Shown here: one piece after another, positions 1,985 through 53,415 of the stretch
Position numbering within the stretch: position 1 is the stretch's first letter
Layout of the letters: every line of letters begins with the position of its first letter
Assembly (NCBI RefSeq): GCF_035594765.1
Contig: NC_085843.1
Coordinates: forward strand, 145,305,971-145,369,970
Length of the DNA stretch: 64,000 nucleotides
Direction of reading: 5' to 3'
Source of the DNA: Anolis carolinensis
Taxonomy: Eukaryota
Made by a program: the position numbers and the translations under genes
Notes under the pieces: model-generated
Seen by the model: only the letters and a program-made list of their open reading frames with translations
The model's database searches: none
Told to the model about the DNA's origin: nothing

Positions 1985-2852
1985 TGTCAAGACCCAGGCT
2001 ACAGAACACCAATAACCATGCGCAGAGGCCAGATTCTATCTAATATCTTTATTAAAGGAATATATAAAGTCAATAAAAACAAGTGAAGAATATAGTTCAG
2101 AAGTAGACCTTTCAGGAAAGGTCAAATATAGTCCAGGAAAATAATGTCCAATATGTGATATTAGAGTCCAAAGTTATAATCCACTAACCGAAACACACAC
2201 TTTGCCAAGCAATAGTGTGGGGAGATGACAAGGTCTTTTAGTCCATTGAAGCTTGACAACAAGGCTGGAAAACAAACTCGATTCTTGGCTAGAACAAGAC
2301 TTGAAACGGGGCAAACAAGAAGCAAGAACAAGGTCCGCGGTGAGGTCCGCGACAAAACTTGAAACAAGGCAGGCTTGGAACTTGGTCCGGGAAACAAGGA
2401 ACTGGGGTTACGAAGTCCACACACGATCTCACTCCTCAAGCTGACAAGTTGACTCCGCAAGGTTTCCTTTGCGGGGAAACTCCTAAATAGGGTCTCGCTT
2501 CCCGCCAGAAGAACACTTTCCCTGGAGAACGAGAAGTGAAACCCAACTCTGTCTAGATGCATGACTCCTTAGAATTTCCCAAGGGAAGCAGACCTAATCA
2601 GCTAGTTGTTTGGCTGCGATTCTGAGGCTCCGGCGATTAGCCTCCCTGGCTCCTCTATCTCTATTATAATTGTCCTTTCGGGAAAATGGGGGAGAATTCT
2701 GCCCAAGGCTTGTTTGGCTGACTTCTTGAGGGCAAACATCCTCCAGGTGCAGGGGCTCCGATTCTGGCTGAACCGGTGGAAATCCCATGTTTTCCTCCTC
2801 GTCTGCCACAATAGTACTAGGAACGGGACTACAAGGCCCATTAGACATCACA
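1985..2852 (-). mobile_element. Solo LTR, family A (Gypsy-like), 868 bp
   Basis: TG...CA termini; 5-bp TSD GCTAG (1980-1984, 2853-2857); minus-strand AATAAA near 2048-2053; closely similar copy at 34095-34982. Confidence 0.95.
2594..2851 (-). CDS. Putative LTR(U3)-encoded acidic peptide or pol read-through tail with RRSLRIAA motif
   Basis: Frame is open from LTR base 2. Same length (258 nt) and open in the second copy (34724-34981). Motif is shared with other LTR families in the window. Confidence 0.45.
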   Translation of the reverse strand: MMSNGPCSPVPSTIVADEEENMGFPPVQPESEPLHLEDVCPQEVSQTSLGQNSPPFSRKDNYNRDRGAREANRRSLRIAAKQLAD

Positions 2853-5338
2853 GCTAGGTTGGCAGGAGCTGGAGCTAACAGCGGCTGCTCACGCCACTCC
2901 CGGGGATTGAACCTGGGACCTTTTGGTCTCCAGCTCAGTGCTTTTAACGCATTTTGCCACCAGGGCTCCTCGAGTAAGAAATAGTTATTATTATTATACT
3001 TTTTTTCCTCCCCCCTCCTCCCTTTACCTGTATCAAGAATATAGTAATCCTTACAACCTGTCAGCAGGGGAAATGCTTAAGGAATATATAGAAAACTCGA
3101 TTCTAGTTAGATGGCTAAACTCAAGATCTGCATTTAAGCTGTGAGGGGCTAAAATATAAACACTCAATACCTATATCTATTTCCCTTTTCAACAAGTTGT
3201 TGGCAATGCACAGAAAGTTTCTCCATCACTCATAAATGTTCATTCTTATAAAATTATCTTGTTCCCTAGGGGGAGTCATCATGTCACAGGACATTAGGAA
3301 ATAAAATCATAGCTTGACACAGCATATTCGATTGTCTGCCTGACAGTATCAGGTTTTTAAATGTGAATATTAAAAACACATACATGTTTTGAAATAAATA
3401 GCTAAATCCTATAAAATGATCCTATGTCTTTTAACTGAGCAAGAAGATTTCCCTTCCTTCCCCCTTCCTGGGAATGAAAAAGGGTGAGTCTGCTCCCCAA
3501 ACAGCATAACTTGCCATGTGTAGGCACGGCATTTCCCACTTCTAAGAGATGTCACAGTTTCTAATTCTCGGATGTTCACCTAAGTAGAATTTTTGTAGGT
3601 ATCCCCAGTGTGTATATATTAACCCTGCAATTGGTGACAAGATGGCTAAGATAAGGTTGTGCCAACTGATCTGTTTACATGCATACAGATACTTGGGCAT
3701 TGGGAAAGACGTTCAAGCAGGTTTGTTTGGCACATGGATGCATTCATAGGATGTTCATCCACATGGCTCTTCACAAATTCCTAGTATGGTGACCATAGCT
3801 TCACATGGTCCTCAGAGCCAGGATGCTTATCACCCTTGGCAAATTAACAGGGAGATCAATTCCCCAACTTTATCCCAAATATTAGAAACCTATACTGATT
3901 CTAGCTATTAATTCACTGCAAGATTTTTTTTTTTGCAATGTTGAGCTATTAGAATCTACAAGTCCTATATTTATTACTTGATTGGGGAGGAGGGAGGCTG
4001 TGACAATGGAGAAGCAATTGTCTTGGTATTATTGAAAGTGTTTGTGAAAATGACAGGTGTCAGACTGAGGACCTCTTATCTTTAATTACTTTTACTATTA
4101 TCCAGCGTATTGGACTGCTTGTTGCCCAACAAACAATGTTTATGGGACTCTTTGGGTGAAGAAAAGTCTGCAATAGCACTCTTGGGGAAGTAATAAGCCT
4201 TCAAATAGGATGCCTGAACTATAAGTCATATAGTAGCATTGAAGGTACCATATAAAAACTGAATGTGATCAAAAACAACCCATATCATGGTCTTTTACAT
4301 GTAATTTAATCAGTGATTCCATCAGTAACATGTGCCATGTACCTGGAGAAACATCTAACTATTGTTCATGAAATATAGTTCCACAATTTTAAAAATATGC
4401 ATGTATTTCTCCCTCACAGTAAATTCTTATGGAAAACCTTAGTATATCCAATTAAACATATTATTATAAAATCCCGACTGAAGCTCATCCTTCTTTTTAA
4501 AAAGTAATCACCTCCCTTGGAGTAATGTATTATCACCTTGAGCCATTACTTTGATGAAATTAATCAGAGAAGCCACCTGTGTGACAATGGAAATGACACT
4601 CGAGTGATTCATCATTATGGACCATCATTATACTGACAATCTGTTAATAGGTTGATGTAAGAGTGGCAGAATTTCAAAAGAATGAAGCTAAACCATTTTC
4701 TTAAGGTAGAGGAATGAGCAATGGAAAACATTAGTGCATGTCTAGGGAAACTTTAGCCATATAAACATGGCTGGGATTTATTTGCCAACTTCCTTGACTA
4801 TTGGCCATACACACTGATAGGGGTTATAGCCCACACGTTGACATAGTTCATGAACATGGTAGTCTTTACTTAAGTAGCATTTGTCCATACTACTGACATA
4901 TTTTGAACCATGCATTGAAAATGAACTTCCATACTCAACCACATTCTGCTCATCATTATATTTGTCTTGGTCCTTCAGTATTCCAGTGCTCAGAATCTTT
5001 TAAAAGTTGTTCTCAGTAAATATAATTCACAAGGAAGCATTTAGTCAGGGCTCTTTCTTGTCAAAGTCTGAACATTGAACATCAATTGAGACCATGCCAA
5101 TTTAGAGTACACCTTTCTCTCATTGTTGCAGTTTCCAGAAGTTTGTATCTGTTTCTATCTGAAAGAGAGCAAATGTTTGTACCAGACTGCTTTTCCCCCA
5201 TGTCTGGCACTCCATTGTTTTCAACTCCCTAGAATACCTGAGTCATTACCAAAGTGAGACAGGCAGAGGTTACTTTCACACCTGTTCTTTTACACACTGA
5301 GCCTTCTTGCACATGACACATAAGCTCTGCATTTGTTA

Positions 5339-47936: not shown

Positions 47937-48881
47937 TAGGGTTACAGCCTGTGTTGGATGGGGTCGCACTCCCCTTGAAGACACAGGTTCGCAGTCTGGG
48001 GGTTCTCCTGGACTCATCGCTGAGCCTGGAGCCCCAGGTCTCGGCGGTGGCCAGGGGAGCCTTTGCACAACTCCGCCTTGTGCGCCAGCTGCGCCCATTC
48101 CTTGGGAGGTCTGACTTGGCCACGGTGGTCCACGCTCTGGTTACAGCTCGTTTGGACTACTGCAATGCGCTCTACGTGGGGCTGCCTTTGAAGACGGCTC
48201 GGAAGCTCCAACTAGTGCAACGGGCGGCAGCCAGACTAATAACAGGAGCAGCTTACAGGGAGCGTACTACTCCCATGCTGAGCTAGCTCCACTGGCTGCC
48301 GATATACTACCGAGCCCAATTCAAAGTGCTGGTTTTGACCTACAAAGCCCTAAATGGTTCTGGCCCATCTTACCTGTCCGAACGTATTTCCCCCTATGAG
48401 CCTTCTAGAACTCTTAGATCATCGGGGAGGCCCTGCTCTCGGTCCCACCAGCCTCGCAGGTAAGGCTGGTGGGAACGAGGGACAGGGCCTTCTCGGTGGT
48501 GGCTCCTCGGCTGTGGAACACCCTCCCCAGCAATATACGGCAGATACCAACTCTCCTAGGCTTCAGGAAAGCCTTAAAGACATGGCTGTGCACACAAGCT
48601 TTTAATGAATAAGAACATGGACTTTACATGACCTGTACGAAGACTTGAGGATTCTGGATGAATGGATTTTAATCTTGGACATTCTTAAAATTTTATATAA
48701 TGTGATTTTATTTTGTAATGGTACCTGTTTTATATGAACTGTTGTTTTGTAGATTGTTTTATATGAATTGTTGTTTTTACATTGTTTTTAGGCATTGAAT
48801 TTTTGCCTATTTACTGTAAGCTGCTTTGAGTCTCCTCGGAGAGAAAGGCGGGGTAAAAGTGATGCAAATAAATAAATAAAT
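47937..48881 (+). mobile_element. L2-clade LINE, 5'-truncated, relatively young
   Basis: ORF 47951-48286 VRSLGVLLDSSL..AFAQLRLVRQLRPFL..RLDYCNALYVGLPLKTARKLQLVQ; CpG-rich; (AAAT)n tail. Confidence 0.92.
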
Positions 48882-49617: not shown

Positions 49618-51758
49618 TTCCCCATCTCAGACACTGGGATGAAGATTCAAAGCTACCATAACAAAGAACATACACAAGCTTGCGTGTGTGTTTAGAGACC
49701 TCACTATTATTTAATCTCTAATGAAATGTTTGAAAGACATCGTGTCATTTTATATCCTGATTCAAATTAAACTCTGCAAAACCAGGTCATTGGATGTTGT
49801 TCTGGTTTACATCCAAATTACTGTCACATCAGTAACACATAGGGATGTCCTATTATTATAGGGCCAAGGCTGGCAAAGCAAGGAAGCATTAGCATATAGA
49901 CCTTCTGGCAGGGATGCTTTCCACTTAGCACTGGGCATTCTGATGGATTTCTCAACTCTCAGCTGCCTTCCAACTCATTATCCCATTTGTCTTCGTTAGA
50001 CTAAATTGGCAGTTATGTCTTCATGGCAAATGTTAGGATTTTTTCCCAATGATCAGTGAGGAAGGAGCAAAAGACAAATAAAAAGGGCTTCCTCCACTGC
50101 CAACCATCTCCCTCCAATGTAACCTGTAATCTCTCTATTATAAATACAAGGGATTGATTGGCACTATATTCTAGATGTAAATTCATTATCAAGGTCCAAT
50201 ATAGTCAGTAAAGGTATACATACCTTTACATAAAAGTGTTGTTCCTCTGTCCAATTTCTATGACAGAAACAAATTTACTGTGTGACCTGGCATCAAAATA
50301 ATATTTACCACTAATTCAGTAGAACAAGACATTTTATCTCCACAGAATTTTGATACAGAAGTCACACAGAATATAATGTTGAAGCTACTAGACATCGTTC
50401 AATATTGTCAACTGAAAATTTGGTAATCATATGTCCAGGTTTCAATCATCTGGACATATGATTGTTTGTTTGCTGTGCTGAGACAAAAAAAAAAGGCACT
50501 ACCTCAAGAAATATATTGCATTTTGCTGACGGTCTCCCCCACCCTCTCTCTACATAAACAACAATGTACTCTTTTTTCATTTTGTGGGTTGATCATGAAG
50601 CAGATGGCAGAGTGAGAAGTCAAAGTAGCTCCTCCTTTATTATTTATTAATATTATAAAAGGCATTATTCCTGATGTTCTGAATACTGCTGTGCTTGGCA
50701 ATGATGATTTGCTAAGATAGTTAGATTGTAGTGGAACCTATTTCTATGGTAGCACCATCAATTATAGCTGTGGATTTGTACAGAATGCTTTTTTAAGGGA
50801 TCCAGATAGCAGCACGATGTAAATATGTCACCATATTATCCCACACTGAGAGGATTGAGAAAGCCATTTCCCACTGGTAAAAATAGGGATGCAAAAGTAG
50901 CAACTTAGCATACCCAACTGTATAGAGAGAGAGGAAGTGTCTTTAATTCTGTACCTCCAGGCACTCCTAGAGGCATTGTGAAACCTTGCAATATGTTGGA
51001 ATTCCCATAAAATCAGAAAATATTCCAAATGTCCCTGAGTGTTTTTAATCAACCTCAATAAGGTTTGAAACACATTTGGAGAAATTTCCTTAAGTAAAGC
51101 ATTTCTGGTAAACCAGTTTCAGTAAGACCAGGGGAGGGTGGCTTTTATTATTGAGGTGATGGTGGTTCGCATATACAAGAATAAACAAATCATTTTTCCC
51201 ACAAGTTACATGAGCTGTGGAGGATTTTTGTGCATTTCTAATCCTTCCAAGACTTTTCTACTCACAAAAGAAGTTTCAATTGTGCAAACACCTTGAATCT
51301 CTGGAGAAAAGACAATCTCTAAATCCAATGAATATAATAATAAGTACACACACACACTCACCATGCTGCTTACAATGTAAAAGAAATTCTTCTTCCCAAA
51401 AGGGTCCTGAAATATTAAAAATGTCATGGTAGTTGACCATTTTCTCAACTGCATAGTATCTCAAAGTTGCTAGGTTCCATCAGAAGATCCTTTAAATCAG
51501 CTGTCCCTCCAAATGACTAGATATTAGGGATGTGTGCGAAAATGGTTTCTTCGTTTACTTCATGCTATTGTTTCATTTTGACCGTTCGTTTACACAAAAT
51601 GAATATGACATTTTCATAGGAAACGAGAGGTGGCACGAAAATGAAAGCTGCACAGTCATGGTGCTTACTTTCAGTTTTCTTTCATTTCTGCCCTGTAACA
51701 ATAAGCGGGTACTGACAGAGGGCTGCTTTCCCATTACGCTTGATGTGTACCAATGGGT

Positions 51759-51807
<49 letters not shown>

Positions 51808-51899
51808 ATCCACACGCTAGGTAGCTACTCTGGGAATCTAACGCTGAGCCTGGGAGAGGAAAGCCTCCACATTACATCTGATGTGTGTGGAAATGGGTG

Positions 51900-51944
<45 letters not shown>

Positions 51945-51946
51945 TC

Positions 51947-53415
51947 TTTTTTGTGCGGTTTTCTGGCATTGTATATTTTTGCCGCTTCTGTGACTGTTCA
52001 TTTGGGTTTTGATGATTCCGTAGCCCACTTGTCGATGGATGTCCAGAATCAGCAGCATCCACCGCGGTCCTTTTTATCCTGGGCGACGACCGAGCCAGTA
52101 TAGACTTCGTTTGGGTTTGATTCTCCATAATGCTAATGGGTTAGGTGCTCTTGGTTGTGCTCCTCAGCTGAGGCCTCTCTGGCTTGGTTGGACCTGCCGG
52201 TAGTTACACTACCGCCAGCACAGCCCTCAGTCATCATTGGAGCAGCTAAGCCCCCCCCCCACCACCACGTCAAGGTGGCACCTGCGGGGGACAATTTGGA
52301 CAGAAAAACAAGAAAACTCATGACCATTCATCATTCACTGCACCCTCGCAGTGATGTTGACCGGCTATATCTGCCTAGAAGATCAGGGGGCAGAGACTCT
52401 TACAAGTAAAGCAAGCAGTCAAAGAAGAAGAACATGCCCTGGCAGAATATGTCAAGCAAAGTGAAGAACCTGCTTTGATTGAAGTCAAAAATCAGAAACT
52501 CCTCAAAACACAGCAGACAAAAAACCAGTACAAGAAAACCGCACTACAAACTAGAGCTGACAGCTGGCACAACAAAACACTGCATGGAAAGTTCCTTGAC
52601 AAAATTGAAGGAAAAGCTGATAAGGAGAAGACCTGGCTCTGGCTCACGAATGGGACCCTGAAGAAGGAGACAGAAGGCCTGATCCTTGCAGCCCAGGAGC
52701 AAGCCATCAGAACAAATGCAATTAAGGCCAAGATTGAAAAATCAGCTGATGACCCAAAATGCAGACTGTGCAAGGAAACCGACGAAACCATTGATCATAT
52801 CCTCAGCTGCTGTAAGAAAATCGCACAGACAGACTACAAACAGAGGCACAACTATGTGACCCAAATGATTCATTGGAACTTATGCCTCAAGTACCACCTC
52901 CCAGCAGCAAAGAACTGGTGGGATCACAAACCTGCAAAAGTATTGGAAAATGAACATGCAAAGATACTGTGGGACTTCCGAATCCAGACTGACAAAGTTC
53001 TGGAACACAACACACCAGACATCACAGTTGTGGAAAAGAACAAGGTTTGGATCATTGATGTTGCCATCCCAGGTGACAGTCGCATAGATGAAAAACAACA
53101 GGAAAAACTCAGCCGCTATCAGGACCTCAAGATTGAACTTCAAAGACTCTGGCAGAAACCAGTACAGGTGGTCCCGGTGGTGATGGGCACACTGGGTGCT
53201 GTGCCAAAAGATCTCAGCCGGCATTTGGAAACAATAGACATTGACAAAATCACCATCTGCCAACTGCAAAAGGCCACCCTACTGGGATCTGCACACATCA
53301 TCAGAAAATACATCACACAGTCCTAGACACTTGGGAAGTGTTCGACTTGTGGTTTTGCGAAACGAAATCCAGCATATCTATCTTGTTTGCTGTGCCATAC
53401 AACGTCGTTGTGTTG
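51947..53415 (+). mobile_element. R4/Dong-clade (RLE) LINE in a (TAA)n target, with inverted 5' end
   Basis: Forward part ~52289-53415. Inverted 5' UTR plus ORF start at 51947-52288 (MENQTQ..RQKYTMPENRT on minus). TSD ..ATAATAATATC on both sides. Confidence 0.9.
52475..53326 (+). pseudogene. R4/Dong ORF C-terminal fragment: CCHC zinc knuckle + restriction-like endonuclease
   Basis: CRLCKETDETIDHILSCC, RHN, PDITVVEKNKVWIIDVAIP, KLSRYQDL. The upstream part (DRKTRKLMT..RLYLPRRSGGR) is offset by a frameshift near 52395. Confidence 0.9.

Follow-up and report, generated by a model that had tools for sequence, protein, structure and literature searches.

The HDV double pseudoknot is built in the order P1-P2-P3-L3-P1'-P4-J4/2-P2'. 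In its consensus, L3 has a U...G spacing, J4/2 carries a catalytic C with an A three bases on, and P1.1 pairs a C of L3 with a G of J1/4; variation is tolerated at J1/2, at position 4 of L3 and at an optional last U of L3. An HDV-like ribozyme of this kind is used by the retrotransposon Dong of the silkmoth (Bombyx mori), which self-cleaves at the TAA junction; P4 is described as highly variable, and in R2 ribozymes a C and a G of L3 are conserved (PMC3774820, in the parts available to us). In active fungal variants of the HDV ribozyme, the first pair is C-G, an extra C separates P2 from P3, and P4 carries a loop E (PMC5640933, likewise available in part). A kink-turn (k-turn) is not mentioned in the accessible parts of the first paper, and neither "kink" nor "k-turn" occurs in the second. 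From the accessible parts of two further sources, k-turns of box C/D type generally need the protein 15.5K to fold (PMC5579392), and C:G at -1b:-1n together with G at 3n favours ion-induced folding (PMC8191799).

Here we describe a lizard 5' UTR that we read as a probable HDV-like ribozyme with a real k-turn as its P4 arm, giving this reading a probability of roughly 0.72 on the strength of sequence comparison. Like the ribozymes of B. mori Dong and Ascaris R4, as far as the available parts of PMC3774820 describe them, it belongs to the R4 lineage with a TAA target, folds from the first base of the element with a P1 of 6-7 bp, and has a P4 of the highly variable kind. Unlike them, the lizard RNA has a C at the predicted cut site and a P1 made of homopolymer runs; its P1.1 is flipped, and its 87-nt P4 contains a k-turn. 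If the conserved L3 C of R2 ribozymes is the P1.1 base, the lizard RNA departs from these as well. With the fungal variants, as described in the available parts of PMC5640933, it shares the C-G at the cut site, the additional C that separates P2 from P3, and a recurrent RNA motif in P4, which is loop E in the fungi and a k-turn in the lizard. In the open literature searched (subscription papers, Ruminski 2011 among them, lay outside this scope), we found no natural k-turn described in an HDV-like ribozyme and no analysis of the 5' UTR of the lizard element.

An R4/Dong-type element and its copy in the window

The source stretch lies in 64,000 nt of Anolis carolinensis DNA, hereafter the window, and corresponds to the 158-nt 5' UTR of a (TAA)n-targeting non-LTR retrotransposon of R4/Dong type that has hundreds of copies in the genome searched (G000). 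Scoring 40 of 2013 candidates from a DNA search of this genome gave 40 full matches at 97-100% identity and one partial match. A full-length copy has 3661 nt and a single ORF of 1137 codons that begins with an ATG at nt 159. The 1137-aa product, which a UniRef entry labelled Anolis carolinensis matches at 99% identity, contains a reverse transcriptase (RT), then a CCHC motif, then a PD-(D/E)xK restriction-like nuclease whose motif was read by eye; Pfam reported RVT_1, a weak zf-RVT and no AP endonuclease family in the ORF. This single-ORF layout without an AP endonuclease, combined with insertion into (TAA)n tracts, fits the R4/Dong lineage, in which we place the element by ORF layout and target. 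The assignment of the 5' UTR to that lineage in the original prediction is thus borne out.

The copy in the window consists of the following parts.

51900..51943, plus strand: (TAA)n target tract, left flank
51951..52128, minus strand: first ~59 codons of the single ORF, truncated at the inversion break near element nt 336
52289..53415, plus strand: 3' fragment of the same element (nt 2534-3661), with RT thumb, CCHC and restriction-like nuclease motifs, 3' UTR and a short TAA tail

Element nt 3-336 is inverted at 51951-52290 and abuts forward nt 2534-3661 at 52289-53415, the latter fragment being 99.6% identical to the full-length copy L034. The window copy is therefore a dead fragment: its 5' part is inverted, its 5' core has slipped, and in this rearranged state it is unable to yield full-length RNA. 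The ORF starting at the ATG at 52128, which had been taken for that of the retrotransposon downstream of its leader, is not a live gene: it belongs to an inverted 5' fragment lying head-to-head with the 3' fragment. Such 5' inversions recur (L002, L005, L006, L016, L018, L019, L022, L028 and L029, in addition to window 51900-53415). In these 10 of 30 loci the inverted piece spans the 5' end to about nt 336, and the position of the junction with the body varies. Near nt 336 the element RNA contains the sequence ATTAT, which is complementary to the TAA target; the recurrent inversions look like twin priming off the target tract combined with a large internal deletion.

Two other features of the window were seen in passing. 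A (TA)n microsatellite at 51745-51824 adjoins the insertion and accounts for the spurious miRNA matches that, together with noise, were all that Rfam returned on the window. A 111-aa ORF at 47951-48286 (plus strand) matched no Pfam family; we presume that it resembles the C-terminal part of an L2/CR1-type LINE RT.

The kink-turn and its variation between subfamilies

The k-turn and the helices around it map to the minus strand of the window as follows.

52158..52244, minus strand: P4 arm, 87 nt, a k-turn capped by a multi-helix domain
52244-52239 / 52163-52158, minus strand: C-stem
52238-52236, minus strand: 3-nt bulge of the k-turn
52231..52237, minus strand: box C-type k-turn strand; of the four subfamilies, only A and D retain the consensus
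52164..52167, minus strand: box D-type strand of the k-turn, GA in 113/118 copies, CUGA in 3/39 copies of subfamily B
52230-52225 / 52173-52168, minus strand: NC extension stem, 6 bp
52218-52214 / 52183-52179, minus strand: inner helix
52213-52199, minus strand: inner hairpin
52283-52278 / 52148-52143, minus strand: closing stem (= P2)

All of the predicted elements, that is box C, box D, their flanking stems and the further helices, were found where they had been placed. By sequence, the arm has what defines a k-turn, namely a Watson-Crick C-stem, a 3-nt bulge, tandem G.A pairs and an NC stem, the full order being C-stem, bulge, tandem G.A, U.U, G-C and a 6-bp extension. A descriptor consisting of box C and box D at most 120 nt apart, with six Watson-Crick pairs on each side, found a single match in the 64-kb window, whose two strands together contain 29 box C sites, and gave 0 matches in 100 dinucleotide-shuffled windows. 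The 87-nt k-turn domain alone folds with z = -2.9 relative to 300 shuffles. The wider 181-nt stretch, at z = -1.75, is unremarkable by energy alone, and the k-turn is absent from its MFE structure.

Copies of the element fall into four subfamilies. Counted as exact-pattern matches, with reversed-pattern controls at 0 every time, there are 718 copies of A (box C/D type), 129 of B and 154 with the C pattern, and two D-directed patterns gave 21 and 20; no clear fifth subfamily emerged, a further-subfamily pattern yielding 10 single-copy variants. We parsed 118 fetched copies (A 48, B 39, C 18, D 13; one unclassified copy was excluded), a non-random sample made up of best or first-listed matches. 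The box C core RUGAUG is present in 48/48 copies of A and 13/13 of D, in 0/39 of B and in 3/18 of C, and the box D sequence CUGA in 47/48, 11/13, 3/39 and 13/18, respectively. The description "canonical box C/D" therefore holds for subfamilies A and D and fails as a property of the family. Subfamily B includes copies with intact 1137-codon ORFs. By comparison, the 3' GA of the k-turn is found in 113/118 copies and the 5' GA in 118/118, the latter partly by construction of the search patterns. The pair type is U.U (box C/D-type) in A, C and D and U.G in B, and -1b:-1n is C:G in all four subfamilies. One small copy with an internal deletion, noted at L033 (minus strand, just upstream of the full copy) and with L010 and L039, has a subfamily B 5' UTR fused within the 3' stem of the k-turn to the 3' end of the element and a TAA tail; this arrangement was seen in that copy only.

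When subfamily majorities are compared, changes are seen in four pairs of the C-stem and two of the NC extension, and all six stay paired. The comparison of A with D shows 11 changed bases in 32 pairs, with five double changes (p ~1.5e-5), and that of A with B shows six, with three double changes (p ~7e-5), both values coming from a simple random-placement null with hand-entered change counts that ignores CpG decay. The stems that flank the k-turn covary between subfamilies, as would be expected of the kink-turn originally predicted. In a 24-row alignment 96.5% of cells are paired, compared to 93.1% in shuffles and 28-41% in slid controls. P1 and P3 are omitted from this pair count because MAFFT misplaces the P3' strand of D. 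In the same alignment the six pairs changed on both sides are not in excess over shuffles (318/500), and neither the inner helix nor the inner hairpin has a double-sided change.

The leader as a whole has also changed little. A and D differ at 19/120 UTR positions vs 119/276 ORF third positions (up to 43%), and A and B at 10/121 UTR positions vs 10/280 third positions. The A-B changes in the UTR cluster on the k-turn, a pattern that may reflect a block swap. Divergence between A and D far below the synonymous level indicates that the 5' UTR is under purifying selection, and stem changes without broken pairs, taken together with this low divergence, show that the k-turn itself is selected. Because D, the most distant subfamily, has the consensus of A, the box C/D-type k-turn is probably ancestral. 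All of the k-turn evidence comes from one genome, and model R1, run on the window and 22 distant loci, matched in the window only.

These comparisons bear on two alternatives. In the first, k-turn-like boxes arose by chance in a GC-rich UTR without selected structure. The whole-region z of only -1.75, the single genome and the one shuffle measure that was not exceeded are what such an origin would predict; 100 shuffled windows without a match, six k-turn stem pairs that change with none broken, and UTR divergence far below synonymous are not. Chance is thus largely refuted, and we regard it as very improbable. The second alternative starts from the likeness of the motif in A and D to the k-turn of box C/D snoRNAs bound by 15.5K/SNU13, which has RUGAUG/CUGA with U.U and G-C above tandem G.A (PMC5579392, in the parts available to us). 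The main function of the UTR, possibly a captured snoRNA, would then be to form a snoRNP-like particle with SNU13, NOP56/58 and fibrillarin. The canonical boxes, the 87-nt span, the terminal stem and a consensus that A, with its 718 exact matches the largest of the subfamilies, has in common with D, the most distant, are consistent with this idea. However, unlike a box C/D snoRNA, the lizard motif is internal to a long coding RNA, lying 42 nt inside 3.66 kb, so that RNA ends do not flank the boxes. Inspection revealed no C'/D' boxes, pair probabilities left no free guide since the bases ahead of box D are paired internally, and the Rfam matches were to the boxes only and far below threshold. 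Boxes C and D are also not conserved across the family, the consensus being lost in B (0/39), whose ORFs are intact, and in most of C (3/18). We judge a snoRNP-like main function decidedly unlikely.

A probable HDV-type double pseudoknot around the kink-turn

In the window, the parts of the fold outside P4 are the following.

52286..52290, minus strand: 5' strand of P1, with which the element begins; 5 C remain instead of the usual 7, at the inversion junction
52277..52283, minus strand: 5' strand of P2 (6 nt) and the extra C between P2 and P3
52264..52276, minus strand: P3 (3 bp) and L3, a 7-nt loop whose position 1 is U and whose positions 3 and 6 are G
52251..52263, minus strand: 3' strand of P1, slipped here, with an extra GGT and 10 G vs 7 G
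52245..52250, minus strand: J1/4, whose first C is predicted from HDV topology to pair with an L3 G in P1.1
52149..52157, minus strand: J4/2, with a candidate catalytic C at 52154 followed by Y-A-A-G, their roles being putative
52143..52148, minus strand: 3' strand of P2, which closes the fold

In unslipped copies the 5' UTR begins with C7 (P1) at the RNA's 5' end and continues with two nucleotides, P2, the extra C, a 3-bp P3 with a 7-nt loop, G7 (P1'), a short joiner, the k-turn P4, a C-Y-A-A-G joiner and P2', which ends 14 nt upstream of the ATG. This is the helix order of the HDV double pseudoknot. The outer P2 pair is A-U in subfamilies A-C and G-C in D, and the same holds for the outer P3 pair, so that each helix has one double change; these changes sit at or beside CpG sites, which raises the rate at which they would occur by chance. 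By sequence, the L3 spacing and the C and A of J4/2 agree with the HDV consensus, the candidate catalytic C being kept in 110/118 copies and AAG in 108/118. Variation in the UTR falls at J1/2, at position 4 of L3 and at the last U of L3, where subfamily D has one extra U. A k-turn within a ribozyme fold, raised in the original prediction as a second possibility, has become the best reading; the UTR fits an HDV-type double pseudoknot, and P2 and P3 covary. The proposed 5-bp "CCACC" hairpin gives way in this fold to the 3-bp P3 of the pseudoknot.

Several features are not those of a canonical family member. Instead of an R-Y pair, the predicted cleavage site has C-G. P1.1 in all four subfamilies is a flipped G-C plus U.U, both bases of the G-C being unchanged in the majorities. 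P1 is a homopolymer pairing without covariation, and in nested folding the preferred structure has a longer P1, at the cost of P3. A strict fold descriptor passes 25/64 copies and fails 39/64 as well as the window copy, and looser descriptors match unrelated DNA too. Rfam gave no HDV-class match at E <= 10 for either the window or an unslipped copy. It is likely that the RNA functions in the manner of an HDV-like ribozyme; on account of the flipped P1.1 with U.U, however, we do not file it as a canonical member.

Other arrangements of the core were considered. A CAC/GTG register for P3 was rejected, as it does not hold in subfamily D. Another register, in which the P3 loop is 10 nt long, has a canonical CC/GG P1.1 but a P2 of 4 bp; it leaves the joint A-to-G/U-to-C change of D unexplained and is less favoured. 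Loop E was not recognisable beneath the k-turn.

The C run, the G run and the GGT repeat are slippage hot spots (L001-L068), and full-length copies keep G7. In the window copy the extra GGT and 10 G break the P1/P1.1 register, and its core is probably misregistered. Comparison of copies suggests that slippage may have cost most genomic copies their cleavage.

We then examined the element's 5' end. Among 30 full-length loci, the start was located in 28 and the core parsed in 23, with G7 in 23/23 and a 7-nt C run in 19/23. The 84 fetched copies with the P2-P3 core comprise 64 direct and 20 inverted ones. Exactly C7 is found in 40/64 direct copies, and 49/64 follow directly after a microsatellite; such a tract is upstream of 0/20 inverted copies. 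The 5' boundary is thus the first base of P1, and C7 is complementary to the G7 directly after P3. Inverted copies without a microsatellite, together with C7 ends, point to an RNA template whose end lay at the C run or inside it. Such template ends are predicted by cleavage at the P1 base and would equally result from a precise promoter.

The latter point belongs to a third alternative, a structured but non-catalytic leader that is transcribed from an internal promoter at the first C and uses its helices and k-turn for translation or for binding the element's own protein. Besides uniform 5' ends, it would accommodate the non-canonical P1.1, the missing Rfam HDV match, and inner hairpins whose sequence is conserved without double changes, as promoter DNA could be. 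However, Pol II initiation on a C run is atypical, and such a leader fails to explain the ordered P1-P2-P3-L3-P1'-P4-C-N-A-A-P2', the match of C7 to G7 and the covariation of P2 and P3. Moreover, silkmoth Dong uses a ribozyme (PMC3774820, available in part), and the fold is found in a distant relative, L183. We consider a non-catalytic leader unlikely and retain the HDV-like ribozyme with a P4 k-turn as the favoured reading.

Distant relatives came from three scans. The metagenome scan gave 20 loci, 0 with a usable full 5' end; the genome-contig scan gave 21 loci, one (L184) with a 5' end; and the viral-contig scan gave one locus, L183. At L183:1857-1939, a Dong-like element in an IMG/VR contig with 31% protein identity has, by eye, a near-canonical HDV-type fold starting at the first base after (TAA)n. 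It has a CC/GG P1.1, the same extra base at P2/P3, a hairpin ahead of the ATG, a P4 without a k-turn, and one mismatch in P1, which is why the fold descriptor missed it. Its Rfam HDV match is weak (E = 3.2) and likewise begins at the first base after the TAA tract. At L184:132-350, a Dong-like element lies in a contig that was binned with a bacterial MAG and is probably eukaryotic contamination. Its 5' UTR follows (TAA)n and has a possible HDV-type core near the ATG; Rfam returned nothing on L184, and we take the head of this UTR to resemble Pol III RNA genes.

Possible roles of the folded 5' end

If the RNA is a ribozyme, host transcripts would read through into the element and be cut where the TAA tract meets the first C. 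The uncapped, folded 5' end would then shield the RNA and, sitting 14 nt ahead of the start codon, could have a role in starting translation. Ruminski and colleagues reportedly suggested in 2011 a translation-start role for such ribozymes. In subfamilies A, C and D, folding of the U.U k-turn would depend on a protein such as SNU13/15.5K, and the U.G k-turn of B would fold in Mg2+ alone.

By analogy with known k-turns, host-protein binding might be a functional step in this pathway, although we hold this to be rather doubtful. In its tentative and more specific form, the P4 k-turn might load SNU13/15.5K, or an L7Ae-family protein of the ribosome, in place of a cap after release by the ribozyme. 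The bound protein would gate folding or cleavage and would steer stability, nuclear routing or cap-independent translation. Subfamily B would represent a switch to a protein-independent k-turn, and hence an escape variant of a host-protein-assisted ribozyme. An engineered k-turn tag is tolerated in P4 of an HDV-like ribozyme, where an L7Ae-binding k-turn proved compatible with ribozyme function (bioRxiv 10.64898/2026.10.01.755752, available in part). That construct is synthetic, whereas the lizard k-turn is natural and under selection.

The surprise is capped, as the basic ribozyme role is already known for Dong. If the favoured reading is true, the HDV variant with C-G and an extra C extends beyond fungi to a vertebrate element missed by Rfam, and the element is a new natural host of a k-turn, one absent from the open literature searched. 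Modules of this kind at the 5' end matter to RNA-templated gene insertion by R2-type proteins (PMC13708176, in the parts available to us). For the stabilisation and translation of uncapped, ribozyme-released retrotransposon RNAs, the lizard element offers a direct handle: a defined, predicted protein-binding motif in P4, with natural variants that are predicted to need the protein (A, C and D) or not (B).
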